From Candidatus Kaiserbacteria bacterium (GTDB lineage Bacteria; Patescibacteriota; Minisyncoccia; Phycocordibacterales; Phycocordibacteraceae): 64,000 nt of DNA. The stretch covers positions 26,258 through 90,257 of the forward strand of contig JARIGM010000035.1 in the NCBI GenBank assembly GCA_029288865.1, in the 5' to 3' direction. Below, piece by piece: positions 6,056-21,994 of this stretch (position 1 is its first letter; every line of letters begins with the position of its first letter). The notes beneath the pieces were generated by a model, which saw only the letters and a list, made by a program, of their open reading frames with translations, was not told the DNA's origin and made no database searches. Both the position numbers and the translations under genes were made by a program.

Positions 6056-7390
6056 ATGTCACAAGAACACGGCACAACAAAAGAAGAGGAGAAAAAGAAT
6101 TTCGTAGTCGAAGGAGGCCATCAGCTTTCAGGAAGCATCGTCACGAACCGTTCGAAGAACGGTGCGGTCGCCTTGCTTGCCGCATCACTCCTTAATAAAG
6201 GCACGACTCGCCTGAACAAGGTGCCGCATATCGAGGAAGTGCATCGCCTCATCGAAGTATTGCGTTCGATCGGCGTCACTGCCGAGTGGGATGACCACGA
6301 CCTCACCCTTACACCTCCTGCAGAAATCTCGCTCGACACCATCGATCGTGTCGCAGCTGCAAAGACCCGCAGCATCCTCATGTTCATCGGCGCCCTCATT
6401 CACCATTTCCCTGCATTCGATATCCCGCAATCGGGCGGCTGCACGCTCGGACTTCGTTCTGTGCGCCAGCACCTCTGGGCGCTTGAGCGATTCGGCGTCT
6501 CGATCGAAACCCTGACGGACCACTACCACGTGACGCATGATGACCTCTCGCCTGAAACGGTCGTTTTGTACGAAGCGAGCGATACCGCAACGATCAACGC
6601 ACTGCTTGCAGCAGCGCGCATTCCCGGCACGAGCACGATAAAGTACGCATCAGCAAACTATCAGGTGCAGGAGGTGTGCGGGTTCCTCCAGCTGCTTGGC
6701 GTCGACATCCAAGGCATCGGCACCACGACGCTTATCGTGACCGGCGTGCCAGAGATCTCCAAAGACGTAACCTACACCGTCGCAGAGGACCCGACTGATG
6801 CTATGTTTTTCATCGCAGCAGCAGTGAGCACTCATTCATCTCTCCTCATCGAGCGCGTGCCGATCGAATTCCTTGAAGTCGAATTGAATGTACTCGAGAA
6901 GATGGGTCTCCACTACACGGTCCGACCAGTCGGGCTTTCAGAGAACGGCATCACGAAACTCGCCGATCTTTCTATCGAACCATCGGAGCTTGTCGCATTT
7001 CCAGAAAAGATTCACGCTCGCCCCTACCCTGCTCTTAACATCGACAACCTTCCGTTCTTTGCTGTTATCGCAACGCAAGCTGAGGGCACCACACTTATTC
7101 ATGACTGGTCCTACGAGAAGCGTGCCATCTATTACACCGAGCTCGATCGTCTCGGTGCAGACACCGTCCTCATGGATCCGCACCGCATCCAGATAACCGG
7201 GCCACGGCATCTCCGCGGCGCTGAGCTCGTTTCTCCGCCCGCGCTCCGTCCTGCTACCATCCTGCTCATCGGTATGCTCGCTGCCCAAGGAACCTCGATT
7301 CTACGCAATATTTACAGCATCAATCGCGGATATGAAGATATCGTGACGCGTCTCCGCAGCATCGGCGCACAGATTACGGCTACTTCGTAG
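6056..7390 (+). CDS. murA: UDP-N-acetylglucosamine 1-carboxyvinyltransferase
   Basis: 444 aa EPSP-synthase fold with MurA-typical N-terminus (GGHQLSGSIVTNRSKNGAVALLAASLL) and C-terminal region. Confidence 0.9.
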   Translation: MSQEHGTTKEEEKKNFVVEGGHQLSGSIVTNRSKNGAVALLAASLLNKGTTRLNKVPHIEEVHRLIEVLRSIGVTAEWDDHDLTLTPPAEISLDTIDRVAAAKTRSILMFIGALIHHFPAFDIPQSGGCTLGLRSVRQHLWALERFGVSIETLTDHYHVTHDDLSPETVVLYEASDTATINALLAAARIPGTSTIKYASANYQVQEVCGFLQLLGVDIQGIGTTTLIVTGVPEISKDVTYTVAEDPTDAMFFIAAAVSTHSSLLIERVPIEFLEVELNVLEKMGLHYTVRPVGLSENGITKLADLSIEPSELVAFPEKIHARPYPALNIDNLPFFAVIATQAEGTTLIHDWSYEKRAIYYTELDRLGADTVLMDPHRIQITGPRHLRGAELVSPPALRPATILLIGMLAAQGTSILRNIYSINRGYEDIVTRLRSIGAQITATS

Positions 7391-7431
7391 CGCGCCCGCG
7401 GTTTTTCTGATACGCTTGCCGTATTCATCAT

Positions 7432-8220
7432 ATGGAACAGACCCGCACATTTCTCAGCAAGCACATCATTCTCATCCTTCTTGCGATCGTGGTTGCGCTT
7501 GTCGGCGCAACCTACGCGCTCGGCTATCGCATCGAGCCAGGAGGCATCGCTCGCGTCGGCACGCTCACTCTCACTGGTCTGCCTGTGGGCACGACTATCT
7601 ATACTGAGGAGACATACCGTATGACCGTAAAGAAAGCCGGCGATGTATCGCTTGAACTTGGCCCCGGTAACCACTCCGTCGTCGTGAATGCGCCGAATGA
7701 TTACCCGTGGAGCACGATCGCCCGTATCACGTCCAATCAGGAAATGCATGTGACTCCGCTTCTCGTGCACATGAATCTAAAAGTCGCGCAGCTCGATGGC
7801 GCAGATAAGACTCTAGCGATTCGTGCAATTGCAACCTCGACGCTTCCAACACCTCAAGCGCCACTCTCTACGATGAACGGCTGTGTGAACGTATACGTGA
7901 GCAACAATCAGGTGATCGCTACTGCCGCGACCAGCACTCCAGGATGCACGCCTCCGCCCTATCTCTGTGCAGGTGGAACATGCGCTGAGACCATCATCTA
8001 TGCGCCGGTAGCGCATCTGACGAATGTATTCCTCTATCCCGGTCGCCAAGACGCGCTTGCAGTCGCATTCGGCGGCACGCTGTATGCGCTTGCGATTGAT
8101 CCGTCGACTCCACAGTTTTTCGCGCCGCTCGTACGTGGCGCAACCGCGCACTATGGCCAGCTTTCAGACGGCAGCATCGTGGTTCAGGACGGGACTACCG
8201 TCGCAAAGATCGGTTTCTAG
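7432..8220 (+). CDS. hypothetical membrane-anchored secreted protein
   Basis: N-terminal TM helix (ILILLAIVVALVGATYAL), a Cys-containing extracytoplasmic domain, no recognisable family. Confidence 0.4.
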   Translation: MEQTRTFLSKHIILILLAIVVALVGATYALGYRIEPGGIARVGTLTLTGLPVGTTIYTEETYRMTVKKAGDVSLELGPGNHSVVVNAPNDYPWSTIARITSNQEMHVTPLLVHMNLKVAQLDGADKTLAIRAIATSTLPTPQAPLSTMNGCVNVYVSNNQVIATAATSTPGCTPPPYLCAGGTCAETIIYAPVAHLTNVFLYPGRQDALAVAFGGTLYALAIDPSTPQFFAPLVRGATAHYGQLSDGSIVVQDGTTVAKIGF

Positions 8221-18071: not shown

Positions 18072-19799
18072 ATGCGCAAGAATATTCTCGGGAAAGGAAC
18101 TTTGGTGATTCTCTTATTAATATCCTATGTTTATAGCGCGCCGCACGCTTTTGCTTTTATTGGTTCCGGAAATTATCTATGGACCAAGCAAACTGCAGCT
18201 GGCGCTCGTACATGGCTCAATATCGTTTCGTCCTCTGACGGCTCCATACTCGCTGCTCCTGACCTGAACGGCTACATCTACGTCTCCACTACTACGGGAG
18301 CTACGTGGACACCCGAGACATCAGCTGGATCGCGTATATGGGCTACGATGGGCATGTCATCGAATGGTGCGGTCATGGTAGATGCCGCACAAGGCTCTGA
18401 CATCTACGTTTCCACAACCACGGGCGCCACTTGGACTGATGAGACAGGTCCGGGAGCCAAGACATGGATCGCTACCGCAGCTTCCTCGAACGGAACCGTT
18501 ATGGCGGCAGCGCCTGACAGCGGGGACATCTACGTCTCTACCACTACTGGCGCGACATGGACCGATGAGACAGGGTCCGGCAGCAGGTCATGGGAGACGG
18601 TCGCGGTTTCAGGAAACGGGTCCGTCATCGTTGGAGCTGTATGGGGTGGCGACCTCTACGTCTCCACAACCACGGGCGCTACATGGACGCATGTGACGTC
18701 GATCCCAGCTCAGGACTGGGTCAATGTCGCTATGTCTTCGGACGGCTCGCACATCGTCGCCGTTTCCTATTCTGATTCTACCTTTACCACTACCAACGGC
18801 ACGGTATGGATTTCGACCGATTCCGGTGCGACGTGGACACAGAATACAAATATTGGATTGAACGGATGGTACGTGGTAGGCGTTACGCCAGACGGGCAGG
18901 AGATTGGCCTCGGAGCAGGCAACGTGTATGGAAATATAAACCCTACCCCGCCGGCACTGGGTCACTTCTATACGTCAATGGATGGTGGCGCTCACTGGAC
19001 AGAGGAAGCACAACTCGGTCAAGATGCGTGGAACGGCGTCGCATTCTCTTCTGATGGCAAACATCTGGCGGTGGTGAGCAGCGATATATGGACTGGTATC
19101 GAGACGTACGGGTCGCTGCCTGGAGTCTTTTCTCCTCCCGTGGCGCCAACGCTTCAGGTGAGCGTGCAGAGCAGCACGTCTGCGAGCGTTCAGCTTTCAT
19201 CGCTGCAAGATAATGGCATATCCACGATCGGTTACGCCTATGCAGCAAGCGGCGTTGCGACTACTACGCGTTCATTCCCTGCCGGCGGACAGACCTCTCT
19301 CAGCGGTCCTATCATCGGACTCTCGTGCGGTACAACTTATTCGATCTGGGGATTTGCCACAAACACTCTCGGTACGACTAATAGCACTACGCAGACATTC
19401 ACTACCCAAGCGTGTGCCGACGGTCAGACGCCACAGAACAATTCCAGTACGGGATTAAATGGAGGAGCTTCGCAGGCGCCGTCGCCAACCATCAAGCTTG
19501 CCACCTCGCATCCTGCGACGGCCGCTGCAACCACTACTCCGGCCGCAACATCGACCCCTGTCTTCCCATCGAATCTCAAGAAGGGTGATAGCGGTGAAAA
19601 AGTCATCGCGCTCCAGGACTTTCTTATTCGGCTCGCAACAGGTCCGGCCGCAGCAGCACTCGCATCATCCGGAGCATCTGGATATTTCGGCACGCTCACC
19701 AAGGCGGCGCTTGTAGAATTACAGAAGACTGCCGGCATCAGCCCCGCTTCCGGATACTTCGGACCGTTCACGAGGTTGTATATACGTTCACACTTTTAG
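18072..19799 (+). CDS. secreted BNR/Asp-box-like repeat beta-propeller protein with C-terminal peptidoglycan-binding domain
   Basis: Signal peptide; at least 4 tandem 43-aa repeats containing YVSTTTGATWT (BNR-like S-x-D/T-x-G-x-T-W) plus divergent copies; Thr/Pro-rich linker; C-terminal PG_binding_1-like segment (LKKGDSGEKVIALQDFL…GYFGTLTKAALVELQ). Confidence 0.65.
   Translation: MRKNILGKGTLVILLLISYVYSAPHAFAFIGSGNYLWTKQTAAGARTWLNIVSSSDGSILAAPDLNGYIYVSTTTGATWTPETSAGSRIWATMGMSSNGAVMVDAAQGSDIYVSTTTGATWTDETGPGAKTWIATAASSNGTVMAAAPDSGDIYVSTTTGATWTDETGSGSRSWETVAVSGNGSVIVGAVWGGDLYVSTTTGATWTHVTSIPAQDWVNVAMSSDGSHIVAVSYSDSTFTTTNGTVWISTDSGATWTQNTNIGLNGWYVVGVTPDGQEIGLGAGNVYGNINPTPPALGHFYTSMDGGAHWTEEAQLGQDAWNGVAFSSDGKHLAVVSSDIWTGIETYGSLPGVFSPPVAPTLQVSVQSSTSASVQLSSLQDNGISTIGYAYAASGVATTTRSFPAGGQTSLSGPIIGLSCGTTYSIWGFATNTLGTTNSTTQTFTTQACADGQTPQNNSSTGLNGGASQAPSPTIKLATSHPATAAATTTPAATSTPVFPSNLKKGDSGEKVIALQDFLIRLATGPAAAALASSGASGYFGTLTKAALVELQKTAGISPASGYFGPFTRLYIRSHF
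18279..19000 (+). repeat. intragenic tandem repeats (about 129 nt / 43 aa, 4 close copies plus 2 divergent copies) encoding BNR-like blades
   Basis: IYVSTTTGATWT(P/D)ET(S/G)… recurs with period 43 aa in the translated ORF. Confidence 0.7.
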
Positions 19800-19870
19800 C
19801 AGGCGAAAACTTATTACTGCCGCATTATCGTAAAGAAAATACTTTTTCAGAGACTCTTCCCTTTTTGAAT

Positions 19871-19898
19871 GCTCCACTGGCTAGAGGAGGTTCGAACG
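19871..19898 (-). repeat. inter-cassette direct repeat copy R1 (distal boundary of cassette array)
   Basis: gctccactggctagaggaggttcgaacg. Nearly identical to copies at 20667-20694 and 21162-21189. Extended identity with R2 continues through tgtatgtaaaaa(a)gaaaa to about 19915, and the left flank ctcttccctttttgaatgctcc matches the half-copy at 21821-21844. Confidence 0.75.
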
Positions 19899-19911
19899 TG
19901 TATGTAAAAAA

Positions 19912-19956
19912 GAAAACCGCCCCTCCGTCGAAACGAAGGTTTGGTTTTCGTTTCGC
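19912..19956 (-). terminator. hairpin terminator downstream of cassette gene C
   Basis: Stem cgaaacgaa…ttcgtttcg, 12 nt after the stop at 19968. Confidence 0.5.
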
Positions 19957-19967
19957 CGAAGTAGCGG

Positions 19968-20471
19968 CTATGCCCGATCAACGTCAGGATTGTTATGCAG
20001 GTTCAGTCTCGTCACGACGTCAGAAGGAGCTTTGGCCAACAGCCGTTTCGCAACAGCCAGGATATCGGGGAATTCTTCTGCATTGTGTGTTGATTCTGTG
20101 ATGTTCACACACCAGCGTTTAATCTCGATACGAACGCCTCCGAAATTCCACGTCTCTTCCCAAGCTCCACGTGTAAAGCAAATATAGGCAACCAATTCCG
20201 GGCCACGGTTGCGCCCTTGAGGCATGTTTGGATCATCGCTCATCGCAAACGGCGTCGTCTCGATTTTGACCAGACGCAAGTCCATATTATCCGGAATGGG
20301 ATTGTGCCCAGGTTGTAGAATTTCTTCTTTAGTCCAGAGACGGTATTTCCGGAAATACACTCGTTCTCCCCGCACGTGTTCGAGATACATATGAAGAATC
20401 TCAAGCGCAGTAGATCCAGTGTTGCCCAAGTCTACTTTCGGCAAACGAACCCAATCCAATTTACTGAACAT
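19968..20471 (-). CDS. hypothetical protein (cassette gene C, 167 aa)
   Basis: Start at MFSKLDW, preceded by a GAGGGG RBS. No recognised family. Own promoter-like region and a 5' leader inverted repeat. Confidence 0.5.
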   Translation of the reverse strand: MFSKLDWVRLPKVDLGNTGSTALEILHMYLEHVRGERVYFRKYRLWTKEEILQPGHNPIPDNMDLRLVKIETTPFAMSDDPNMPQGRNRGPELVAYICFTRGAWEETWNFGGVRIEIKRWCVNITESTHNAEEFPDILAVAKRLLAKAPSDVVTRLNLHNNPDVDRA

Positions 20472-20525
20472 TTCAATTACCCCTCTCGGGTAATGCCGTA
20501 CGGAATTGTACAAGCAACTGTCATC

Positions 20526-20573
20526 TCGACAGTCTTTTAGTGGCAAAGCGGATTGTCAGTAAAAGACTGTCGA
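20526..20573 (-). promoter_or_regulatory. perfect 14-bp inverted repeat (tcgacagtctttta / taaaagactgtcga) with 20-nt spacer in the 5' leader of cassette gene C
   Basis: The arms are exact reverse complements. The element sits 55-100 nt upstream of the gene C start, between the putative promoter and the RBS. Confidence 0.55.
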
Positions 20574-20666
20574 GAAAGGTTGCCTGGCTCTACTGGGGTA
20601 TACACTAAATATGCTTCTCAGCAGCTGAGTTGAATCCAAGTATTATATACAACACTATTATATAAA

Positions 20667-20694
20667 AGTAAAGTGCTCCGCTGGCTGGAGGATG
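20667..20694 (-). repeat. inter-cassette direct repeat copy R2
   Basis: gctccgctggctggaggatgttcgaacg, followed on the minus strand by a promoter-like TTTACT-17-TATATA. Confidence 0.75.
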
Positions 20695-20711
20695 TTCGAA
20701 CGTGTATGTAA

Positions 20712-20745
20712 AAAGAAAAACCCGTCAGCCTTGCGACTGACGGGG
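20712..20745 (-). terminator. intrinsic terminator downstream of cassette gene B
   Basis: cccgtcag ccttgcga ctgacggg hairpin with a flanking A/T run. Confidence 0.6.
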
Positions 20746-20774
20746 AGTTGTCTGAGCAGCCCGAGCTGTGAACT

Positions 20775-21080
20775 TCAGGCGGGGATGCCCATGCGCGGGT
20801 CAACCCTCTCGAGGATCGGGTCGTCGTCGGAGATGAACGACCGCTCGGGGATCTCGGACGCGAAGAGCTTCTTCGCGGCGGCGATGCCCATGAGAGTAAT
20901 GATGGCGACGATCTGGTCGTGCTCCTCGTGATCGAAGATCTTGATCACGGTCCAGGACTGGCGGTCCCGACCCGGCATCCGATCGAATTGCTGCCCGATC
21001 TTGGGCGAGTCTTCGTTGCTGACCTGCACCAGCTCGATCTTGTTCTCGAACTTGGCCAGAAGGAAGATGCTGCGGTTCAT
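20775..21080 (-). CDS. hypothetical protein (cassette gene B, 101 aa)
   Basis: AAAGGA RBS; a near-consensus sigma70 promoter immediately upstream; no recognised family. Confidence 0.5.
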   Translation of the reverse strand: MNRSIFLLAKFENKIELVQVSNEDSPKIGQQFDRMPGRDRQSWTVIKIFDHEEHDQIVAIITLMGIAAAKKLFASEIPERSFISDDDPILERVDPRMGIPA

Positions 21081-21132
21081 GATGGTATCCTTTCTTGAAA
21101 AGCCAGGATTCTGGCGATGGAACTTCCGTATC

Positions 21133-21161
21133 TATATTAGCACGTATCATGATTTATGTCA
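21133..21161 (-). promoter_or_regulatory. near-consensus sigma70 promoter (TTGACA-17-TAATAT) driving cassette gene B
   Basis: Minus-strand reading is agcTTGACAtaaatcatgatacgtgcTAATATagatacgg. The -35 hexamer abuts repeat copy R3 directly. Confidence 0.65.
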
Positions 21162-21189
21162 AGCTCCACTGGCTAGAGGATGTTCGAAC
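21162..21189 (-). repeat. inter-cassette direct repeat copy R3
   Basis: gctccactggctagaggatgttcgaacg. Confidence 0.75.
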
Positions 21190-21213
21190 GATACTGATAG
21201 GAAATAAGTAAAG

Positions 21214-21247
21214 AAAAAACCCGTCCTTCATGGAAAAGCGGGTTTTT
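21214..21247 (-). terminator. intrinsic terminator downstream of the NADAR gene
   Basis: aaaaacccg tccttcatggaaaag cgggttttt. Confidence 0.7.
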
Positions 21248-21264
21248 AAATACAGTTAATATGA

Positions 21265-21729
21265 CTACCGAAGCGGTGGTAATTTGTCCCGGATCTCCAT
21301 GAGAATCCGACAAAATAACTCCGCCGGTAGGGATGTATCAGGAGACTCGGGTCCGACGTCATGATACAACTCTAGTCCTGTTGTCGCGTGTAACGCTTTT
21401 CTGGCCATATCGTTCTGGGCAAACTTCGCGTTAATCGCGATAGCTATGAGCATGCGATGCTGGTCGCTTCCATAAGGATCCGAGCGTCCATCCCACCAAA
21501 TCCGCTTTCGTTCTGCGAAGGTGCCATATTCTTTTGCTCGTTTTCCCCACGATAGGAATGCTTCTTTTCGTCTGGCGTCATCCTCAGGAAATTTTATTCC
21601 CTGAATGAATCCCTCTGCCGACGCACAGAATTCATTGCCAATCTTAAAAGGGATACAAGGAAAGTTACTAAGGATGTGTGCTCGCCAATCGGTCGAGCCA
21701 CTGGTTACATTGATTCGTTCTACTGTCAT
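21265..21729 (-). CDS. NADAR domain protein (YbiA-like, DUF1768; a family reported to act on ADP-ribose linkages)
   Basis: ILSNFPCIPFKIGNEFCASAEGFIQGIKF…GPESPDTSLPAELFCRILMEIRDKL matches the NADAR pattern (FSNF…F…EH.FQA.KF…N.LG..LM..R..L). GGAGG RBS. Confidence 0.65.
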   Translation of the reverse strand: MTVERINVTSGSTDWRAHILSNFPCIPFKIGNEFCASAEGFIQGIKFPEDDARRKEAFLSWGKRAKEYGTFAERKRIWWDGRSDPYGSDQHRMLIAIAINAKFAQNDMARKALHATTGLELYHDVGPESPDTSLPAELFCRILMEIRDKLPPLR

Positions 21730-21820
21730 GAGAACCTCCTATTCTAGCCGGACTATATCACCAATGAGAAAAAATTGATATTTCAAGAATGTGATCTCTT
21801 TTTGGAACCGGAGCGTTTTC

Positions 21821-21844
21821 CTCTTTTCTCCAATGCTCCGTGGG
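21821..21844 (-). repeat. truncated half-copy (R0) of the cassette repeat between tRNA-Asn and the first cassette
   Basis: ctcttttctccaatgctccgtggg matches the left part of R1 (ctcttccctttttgaatgctccactgg) but lacks the ctagaggaggttcgaacg half. Confidence 0.5.
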
Positions 21845-21882
21845 TAAGCAAAGCTTGCCCGCCGTCGCCTCGCTCGAATACA

Positions 21883-21908
21883 AAAGACCCCTAGGAAGGG
21901 GTCTTTTG
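21883..21908 (-). terminator. terminator hairpin immediately 3' of tRNA-Asn
   Basis: aaaagacccct agga aggggtctttt, followed by a T-run on the minus strand. Confidence 0.65.
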
Positions 21909-21922
21909 TATTGCTCACTCGG

Positions 21923-21994
21923 CTCCGCGGGTAGGATTCGAACCTACGACCAACTCGTTAACAGCGAGCCGCTCTACCACTGAGCTACCGCGGA
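21923..21994 (-). tRNA. tRNA-Asn (anticodon GTT)
   Basis: Minus-strand cloverleaf folded by hand: acceptor TCCGCGG/CCGCGGA, D-arm GCTC AGTGGTA GAGC, anticodon stem-loop GCTCG CTGTTAA CGAGT (GTT), T-arm GTAGG TTCGAAT CCTAC, discriminator G. Confidence 0.85.

Follow-up and report, generated by a model that had tools for sequence, protein, structure and literature searches.

An array of three small genes, each followed by a copy of a 28-nt repeat, lies downstream of a tRNA-Asn(GTT) gene in a Candidatus Kaiserbacteria bacterium (GenBank assembly GCA_029288865.1, contig JARIGM010000035.1, positions 26,258–90,257 of the forward strand). The stretch analysed is 64 kb in length and is called the window; positions are counted from its first nucleotide. 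The repeat belongs to a site family that is anchored at tRNA-Asn genes and physically linked to large serine recombinases (LSRs), and it probably represents the attP-type left half-site and core of these enzymes. Bacteria of the Candidate Phyla Radiation (CPR) have tiny genomes in which few mobile elements have been recognised, and little is understood of the way they gain accessory genes.

The tRNA-Asn locus

Three minus-strand open reading frames (ORFs) of 154, 101 and 167 aa, named g1 to g3, are found downstream of the tRNA gene, as an original prediction made from the sequence had stated. Their coordinates and those of all other features are collected in Table 1. The 28-mer (GCTCCRCTGGCTRGAGGAKGTTCGAACG on the plus strand) occurs exactly three times in the window and in none of 100 shuffles, and the copies R1, R2 and R3 are all on the tRNA strand. 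The same prediction had recognised these three copies and placed R1 exactly; its positions for R2 (20667–20694) and R3 (21162–21189) were shifted by 8 nt and 1 nt. R1 and R2 have 49 nt in common at 90% identity, close to the ~45 bp predicted, and the part common to R3 is the 28-mer only.

Read in gene direction, each unit consists of a gene, a GC-rich hairpin, a T-run, the sequence (ACATACA)CGTTCGAAC(A/C)TCCTC(T/C)AGCCAG(T/C)GGAGC and the upstream region of the next gene. The position of the repeat between a terminator and a promoter indicates a function at the DNA level. A separate promoter had been assigned to each gene. The promoter scan agreed for g1 and g2; upstream of g3, an AT-rich stretch contains only TATAAT boxes and no -35 element was called. 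A separate terminator had been assigned likewise, and those before R2 and R1 were called by the scan, while the one before R3 is visible and was not called.

A truncated half-copy of the repeat had been placed between the tRNA and the first cassette, and a partial copy of this kind is present. It forms the end of a non-coding unit of ~86 nt, in which the arms of the tRNA terminator hairpin (21877–21892 and 21897–21912) are followed by ..GGGCAAGCTTTGCTTACCCACGGAGC. The minus strand at 21835–21848 (CTTACCCACGGAGC) matches the tRNA 3′ end (CCTACCCGCGGAGC) at 12 of 14 positions and ends in CGGAGC, and cassette 1 begins directly after this core. The homologue of the unit in another locus, L019 (loci outside the window are given as L and a number), is located after the last repeat of the array and not beside the tRNA. 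The L019 cassettes thus lie between the tRNA core and the unit, and the window cassettes lie after the unit's own CGGAGC. Either the core of the unit is a secondary acceptor or the unit itself is the latest insertion; both ways, insertion would be at a core.

At the distal end, R1 adjoins a flank that runs into a convergent 575-aa gene (18072–19799). No cassette gene follows R1, in agreement with the prediction, and this would be because R1 is the terminal, attR-like copy set against the host flank. The attR-like assignment is by analogy with L074, L104 and L109, where attR consists of P arm, core and host flank.

The window thus holds three units and four cores and lacks a recombinase, as had also been predicted. 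No serine recombinase was found in the window by tblastn or by a family hidden Markov model (HMM) run against six-frame ORFs (best E 0.65). The tyrosine-recombinase box II motif was not found in the window or in any of the 114 loci by a regular-expression scan, which is heuristic; a Pfam listing of all locus ORFs comprised the 25 most frequent families, and rare tyrosine recombinases may escape it. In a search of the window against Rfam, only the tRNA was matched.

Table 1. Coordinates of the array and its components in the window
Feature	Position	Strand	Description
tRNA-Asn(GTT)	21921–21994	-	ARAGORN, Rfam
Putative attB-type (B) left half-site and core	21922–21944	-	last 23 nt of tRNA, GGTTCGAATCCTACCCGCGGAGC; core CGGAGC at 21922–21927
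Non-coding unit, ~86 nt	21835–21920	-	tRNA terminator hairpin, then GAGCGAGGCGACGGCGGGCAAGCTTTGCTTACCCACGGAGC; core CGGAGC at 21835–21840
Cassette 1	21163–21834	-	promoter-like site, g1, terminator-like hairpin and T-run, R3
g1 promoter-like site	21741–21770	-	TTCTCA-18-TAGAAT; promoter scan
g1	21265–21729	-	154 aa; Phage_30_3 / NADAR-like
Terminator-like hairpin and T-run before R3	~21212–21243	-	visible by eye, uncalled by scan
R3	21163–21190	-	putative attP-type (P) left half-site and core (21163–21168); minus strand CGTTCGAACATCCTCTAGCCAGTGGAGC
Cassette 2	20675–21162	-	promoter abutting R3, g2, terminator, R2
g2 promoter	21134–21162	-	TTGACA-17-TAATAT; promoter scan; near-consensus, begins right after GGAGC of R3
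g2	20775–21080	-	101 aa; orphan
Terminator before R2	20721–20744 and T-run	-	scan
R2	20675–20702	-	putative P-type half-site and core; minus strand CGTTCGAACATCCTCCAGCCAGCGGAGC
Cassette 3	19871–20674	-	AT-rich region with TATAAT boxes, long leader, g3, terminator, R1
g3	19968–20471	-	167 aa; no family match
Terminator before R1	19917–19936 and T-run	-	scan
R1	19871–19898	-	putative terminal P-type half-site and core, attR-like

Distribution of the repeat

A profile search with the motif GGTTCGAACaTCCTCcAcCCAGCGGAGC found 183 copies, and 215 after iteration, in about 100 contigs. All copies within a locus are on one strand, with no opposite-strand matches. In a scan of one genome per species, the motif was present only in six contigs of metagenome-assembled genomes, labelled Parcubacteria group, Paceibacteria or unclassified bacterium. 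A metagenome scan returned 96 stretches. A scan of viral contigs returned no matches, and the motif is therefore not an obvious phage signature.

The largest array has 10 copies (L072). Where a locus holds a tRNA gene, this is tRNA-Asn(GTT) in 21 of 24 cases; it precedes the first repeat and shares the strand of the repeats without exception. The 136 units between sites measure 791 nt at the median, and 85 of them contain a single ORF (60 aa or longer). ORFs in the arrays follow the site direction in 157 of 208 cases and are opposite to it in 51. Conservation is confined to a block GG-TTCGAACaTCCTCcAcCCAGCGGAGC from -2 to +25 with sharp edges; only a T-run precedes it and only mild A-richness follows.

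Several sites depart from this pattern. Two sites in L044 (924–1001) are merely 53 nt apart and form a near-empty unit. A P-arm variant, TTCGAACATCATCCCATAGGCGGAGC, was observed in L070 (at 3303, 3695 and 5822), L027 (1487) and L039, with ..CATCCCATAGG.. in the P arm of L070 and L027. This suggests site sub-families, possibly paired with different recombinases. A lone site in L006 (6504–6546) lies directly upstream of a tpiA-pgk operon, whose start codon is 6 nt past a TATGAT box. Here an array probably ends, on its distal side, against core genes, and the tpiA-pgk transcript is possibly leaderless.

Crossover position and half-site spacing

Breakpoints were read from pairs of contigs at least 97% identical and numbered with the T of TTCGAAC as 0. 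Thirteen of about 25 right-hand breakpoints fall at +25 to +28 of a site or at the tRNA end, as in L009/L047, L021/L056/L082/L088 and L074/L079/L101. In a comparison with L101/L079, the sequence that follows the repeat in L094 is 100% identical, from +20, to what follows the tRNA-type end in L101. The same cassette follows a tRNA core in L035 (..CCGTCGGAGC|ATTGACATTATG..) and a repeat core in L070 (..GGCGGAGC|ATTGACATTATG..), and both copies end at the next repeat. L027 and L039 have the same relationship between tRNA core and repeat core at 100% identity. Whole cassettes with cores at both edges are common to otherwise unrelated arrays in L007/L081 (96%), L019/L030 (87%) and L035/L070 (78%).

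Judged from these alignments, the crossover is inside CGGAGC (+20 to +25), the 6 nt with which both the repeat and the tRNA end terminate. Position 20 varies (C/T), which places the crossover dinucleotide within GGAGC, and strand exchange is probably at the GG or the GA of CGGAGC.

TTCGA and xGGAGx are 10 nt apart in 21 of 21 tRNA-Asn genes beside arrays, a spacing also found in the window tRNA, and 15 nt apart in 138 of 140 repeats. Compared with its place in the tRNA, the motif GGTTCGAA is thus moved outward from the core by exactly 5 bp in the repeat. With the centre set at the GG of CGGAGC, GGTTCGAAY occupies positions 16–24 in the repeat and 11–19 in the tRNA. The zinc-ribbon domain of the LI/A118 integrase reads a 9-bp motif at 16–24 in attP half-sites and at 11–19 in attB (PMC3783163). 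The positions are equal, so a single recombinase would have the repeat as its P-type half-site and the tRNA end as its B-type half-site. Repeat and tRNA have only the 6-nt core and the displaced GGTTCGAA in common, less than the ~18–20 bp of the target 3′ end that are copied in known tandem LSR islands.

The linked serine recombinase

LSR genes with Resolvase (PF00239), Recombinase (PF07508) and Zn_ribbon_recom (PF13408) domains were found in 5 of 100 short loci, including L074 and L037. The LSR genes in the loci are always on the opposite strand, directly right of a site. The LSR tail in L074 (78–1691 in oriented coordinates, here and for L037; ..LRRQDSNLRP) is encoded by the reverse complement of the tRNA-Asn end, and that in L037 (63–1814; ..LRWVEDVR..) by the reverse complement of the repeat. 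One type of LSR element occurs in two copies that are ~79% identical; its left end, aagatagaactcttagag..., abuts the tRNA in L074 and a repeat in L093. The L074 element is 8.9 kb in length and has the repeat at its far end. A repeat at the far end was found in four LSR elements (L074, L040, L104 and L109), at a distance of 6.5–7.3 kb in L104 and L109.

The LSR family has more than 4000 homologues at E <= 1e-20, and these are Patescibacteria where names are given. Four further homologues (55–65% identical) have 10 untruncated contexts, and in all of these the gene and a convergent tRNA-Asn(GTT) overlap at the 3′ end of the gene. LSR-bearing elements have a conserved right arm, TTGAGCGTA, at positions 16–24 inside the LSR coding region (P′ arm). 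Symmetry between the P arm and this LSR-proximal P′ arm was sought and not found.

Two further features of the LSR genes were observed. The ORFs cross the attachment site (L074, L037 and L103–L114), and their last 10–20 residues are set by the joined partner; the integrated and the excised element would accordingly encode LSRs with different C-termini. At a constant distance of ~58 nt to the right of the core, a second AGGTTCGAACC motif is found inside the 3′ end of the recombinase gene (L074 at ~175–185; also L103, L104, L107 and L109). It is the same palindromic 9–10-mer as in the half-sites and encodes (K/R)FEP. This motif may be either a third binding site or merely a conserved peptide.

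Cargo genes and additional features

The first gene, g1, had been assigned to NADAR. Its main Pfam match is Phage_30_3 (PF08010, E 6e-15), and it also matches phrog_652; the match to the NADAR-type family TIGR02464 is weak, and that assignment is retained only in this qualified form. The second gene, g2, has a GC content at third codon positions of 0.90 vs 0.46–0.61 in neighbouring genes, and a homology search of 5.8 billion proteins matched it to itself only. It appears to be a foreign or de novo ORF, yet it is set between a local-looking promoter and terminator. Profile searches found no family match for g3. Look-ups of window genes by exact protein sequence returned no match. An inverted repeat with 23-nt arms (91% complementary) and a 6-nt loop is present in the g3 leader at 20524–20575, between the AT-rich upstream region and the start codon, and could be an operator or an attenuator-type hairpin.

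The cargo of other arrays includes HsdR, reverse transcriptases, kinases, toxin-antitoxin-like pairs and many unknown genes. RVT_1 reverse-transcriptase genes are located directly upstream of a site in four loci (L021 at 1658–2932 in oriented coordinates, L082, L088 and L056), beside type I restriction HsdR, and one is inside an LSR element (L103, 6166–8001). The reverse transcriptases in arrays may be defence cargo; that they help to make cassettes is pure speculation. A protein of ~120–135 aa with zinc-finger and HNH-like motifs (..CxxCGY..HH..CxxCH..) is encoded upstream of arrays in eight loci (L090 at 172–579, L005 at 7241–7600 and six more) and has no significant Pfam match.

Interpretation

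The repeat is probably the attP-type left half-site and core of tRNA-Asn-specific LSRs in Parcubacteria-type CPR bacteria, with the locus formed by stacked insertions. A DNA molecule with a P half-site at its right end would be inserted directly behind a core, either that of the tRNA or a further one. Each inserted piece would deposit P and core at its distal end and shift older insertions away from the tRNA. The window array would then be limited proximally by the tRNA-end-like core and distally by the terminal R1 against the host flank. Single-gene cassettes that lack an LSR would be inserted and excised in trans by the LSR of a co-resident element, in the manner of cis-mobilisable elements (CIMEs), ccr-less units of the staphylococcal cassette chromosome (SCC) and integron cassettes. 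The left half-site alone would suffice for this, and the products would then still be substrates.

The original prediction described a site-specific recombination array at tRNA-Asn, and this description is upheld by the co-oriented arrays, the tRNA-Asn anchoring, breakpoints at the repeat end, the 5-bp offset, the exchange of whole cassettes and the tied recombinase family. The searches it proposed, for more arrays, variable content and a linked integrase, led to arrays of up to 10 copies, to cassette exchange and to the LSR family. Between its two suggestions, integron-like or tandem integrative elements, tandem elements are the fitting class of mechanism, with an LSR as the enzyme, and the integron survives only as an analogy of layout.

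Several observations weigh against stacked LSR insertions. Canonical LSR att sites have two recognisable half-sites. The right side of the cassette sites is unconserved and does not conform to this expectation, and the conserved P′ arm of the LSR-bearing elements is unseen in cassettes, which may therefore miss an arm that is needed. Canonical LSRs do not recombine attL and attR without a directionality factor, and repeated insertion at a tRNA that already carries an element requires this rule to be relaxed. The window copies have CG instead of GG before TTCGAAC, and the ~86-nt unit, as read from its sequence, lacks the GGTTCGAA motif. With no recombinase in the 64-kb window and no homologues of the window cassettes in other loci, the movement of these three cassettes, past and present-day, is inferred from the family. 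Finally, a comparison of L031/L101 with L074 shows that the LSR module was replaced at a breakpoint that is not a site, so decay also yields LSR-less units.

This last observation also bears on a serious, if unlikely, rival, in which full-size LSR elements (6–9 kb) integrated one after another at tRNA-Asn and decayed, so that the repeats are what is left of attR and the units are immobile leftovers that contain the gene nearest attR and never moved as single genes. Full-size LSR elements do end in the repeat (L074, L040, L104 and L109), and 2.4 kb from the right side of the L074 element survive in L031/L101 (99% identity). The absence of a recombinase from the window and of the conserved right arm from cassette sites fits as well. 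The uniformity of the units, in length and in their single ORFs, speaks against it. Detected promoters begin 0–8 nt past the core, and terminators are at a fixed distance ahead of the site. Single cassettes common to unrelated arrays with core-exact ends (L035/L070, L007/L081 and L019/L030) are unexpected from random deletion.

It is very improbable that the arrays are tRNA islands of a tyrosine integrase (P4-type or tycheposon-like) and the repeats displaced, degenerated 3′ fragments of tRNA-Asn. In favour of such islands, a tRNA gene lies upstream of the arrays, the 3′ end of the tRNA and the repeat are alike (GGTTCGAA ... CGGAGC), and a mini-element in L031/L101 lies between exact 24-nt duplications of the tRNA end. 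However, 138 of 140 repeat copies are longer by 5 nt, and the repeat is itself highly conserved over divergent genomes, so it is no decayed tRNA copy. The heuristic scan found no box II motif in the window and 114 loci, and the sole recombinase at the junctions is the LSR. Two related candidates were rejected. A truncated 3′ end of another tRNA has no T-stem partner upstream and leaves the constant 5 extra nt; a dif/Xer-like 28-bp site was dismissed on reading the sequence, in which the arms are not inverted repeats.

A regulon motif, with the 28-mer as an operator, activator site or UP-like element just upstream of each -35, is scarcely credible. Good sigma-70-like promoters begin 0–7 nt past the motif in the window, L002, L003 and L005. 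Across the family, however, a promoter-like match within 70 nt follows only 22 of 167 sites (13%, vs 3.9% background), at a variable spacing of 0–26 nt, and the shared operator named in the original prediction as its refuting alternative fails on these counts. Many copies, R1 included, point towards a terminator or a convergent gene, co-orientation is strict even where ORFs differ in direction, strain breakpoints fall exactly at the motif end, and the motif lies within the 3′ ends of LSR ORFs.

A true integron, with attC sites used as folded single strands by an IntI-type tyrosine recombinase, would account for the co-oriented single-ORF cassettes of ~0.5–1 kb with a conserved end site, the crossover at the site end and the fixed proximal insertion site, but is effectively refuted by the missing attC structure: 40-nt windows at R1–R3 fold on both strands at only -1.2 to -3.5 kcal/mol (z -1.3 to +1.3) without the stable attC-like fold for which a test had been suggested, the logo has no dyad symmetry, the heuristic scan found no IntI-like motif, the scan called a separate promoter for g1 and g2 in the window, where each cassette also has a terminator-like hairpin, and the anchor is a tRNA end and not an attI beside intI.

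Stacked LSR insertion at tRNA-Asn remains the preferred explanation, and a bolder extension of it, rather less probable than not, is offered tentatively. The arrays may be a CPR counterpart of the integron that is run by a serine recombinase, with the tRNA-Asn end as fixed acceptor, the 28-bp P half-site as cassette tag, and one-sided B × P recombination that regenerates B and P. Self-expressed single-gene cassettes, including orphans of foreign composition like g2, would be captured, stacked and re-excised in trans. A ~135-nt structured, covarying element often found in other arrays would provide extra acceptor sites or act as a regulatory RNA.

This element was observed after a terminator hairpin in 60 occurrences, always co-oriented with the repeats, and is absent from the window. 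It is present in L031 (1893–2027 in oriented coordinates), L101, L035, L025 (five tandem copies), L087, L076, L012 and others. Its ends pair like the acceptor stem of tRNA-Asn, and it terminates in a tRNA-type (B-type) site. RNAalifold predicted 26 pairs, 18 of them with compensatory changes, and a GUA triplet is present in a hairpin loop of all aligned copies but one. No Rfam family was found for it. The element is possibly a novel small RNA, or else an additional acceptor on which the recombinase could act.

The site family marks a hot spot at the end of tRNA-Asn that stacks diverse, mostly unknown genes in many Parcubacteria-type genomes, and its 28-bp signature can be searched for to find flexible regions in metagenomes. 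Serine integrases are used in genome engineering, and the site family provides a natural set of attB/attP pairs for a clade of them that is large (more than 4000 homologues) and uncharacterised. If a one-sided-site serine recombinase does run an integron-like cassette store, this would be a convergent solution to gene capture and would bear on the question of how cassettes are made.

Comparison with known systems

Tandem LSR arrays with recombinase-less units are already known. The closest described are the ssrA islands of Dehalococcoides and the composite islands of SCC. Searchable literature returned no relevant description of CPR integrons, tRNA-Asn cassette arrays or Patescibacteria serine recombinases.

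The Dehalococcoides ssrA islands (DsiB, a CcrB-like LSR) likewise have tandem units downstream of a single small-RNA gene, an LSR of ~540 aa on the reverse strand beside attL, and a unit-end repeat composed of a non-target motif and a piece common with the target 3′ end (PMC3146451). Some of their units lack the integration module and were read as cis-mobilisable (PMC3146451). They differ in target (tmRNA there, tRNA-Asn here), and the host here is a CPR bacterium. Crossover is in mid T-loop there, with 20 nt in common, and at the very 3′ end here, with 6 nt in common. Multi-gene islands there correspond to single-gene units of ~0.8 kb here, and their six-gene integration module with a second small recombinase was not seen in the present loci.

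SCC and SCCmec (CcrAB/CcrC) also insert by LSR at the 3′ end of one conserved gene, form tandem or composite arrays split by att repeats, include att-flanked units without ccr, and use a central GA dinucleotide, which is present here within CGGAGC (bioRxiv 10.64898/2026.03.31.715619). Their target is protein-coding (rlmH), and the elements are 20–60 kb in length, unlike the single-gene units described here. SCC half-sites are degenerate inverted repeats, three of four alike, whereas the cassettes conserve the left half-site only.

Phage LSR integrases (A118/LI, Bxb1, phiC31) have the same domain architecture and a 9-bp distal motif with a 5-bp shift (PMC3783163). Phage sites have two related half-sites, and attL and attR are inert without a directionality factor; the sites here look one-sided, and the arrays imply repeated use of one locus.

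The arrays resemble integrons in their fixed proximal site, co-oriented single-ORF cassettes of 0.5–1 kb, conserved end site and crossover at the site end. The cargo is similarly diverse and often orphan, and includes toxin-antitoxin-like pairs. They are unlike integrons in their serine recombinase and in a short half-site of double-strand type without an attC hairpin. Window genes g1 and g2 have their own scan-called promoter and all three genes a hairpin, in contrast to the one shared Pc promoter of integrons. The anchor is a tRNA, and the recombinase is not fixed beside the array.

Tycheposons and other tRNA-linked island builders, and the accretion of CIMEs and integrative and conjugative elements, are further cases in which successive integrations at a tRNA displace older elements inward, with partial-tRNA repeats and cargo units without an integrase left behind (bioRxiv 10.1101/2020.12.28.424599). 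In contrast to the arrays here, tycheposons mostly depend on tyrosine recombinases and genuine partial copies of the tRNA, and each comprises several genes together with replication modules (bioRxiv 10.1101/2020.12.28.424599). The present arrays differ from all these systems in their target at the very end of tRNA-Asn, the 6 nt in common with that target, the one-sided cassette sites and the single self-contained genes.

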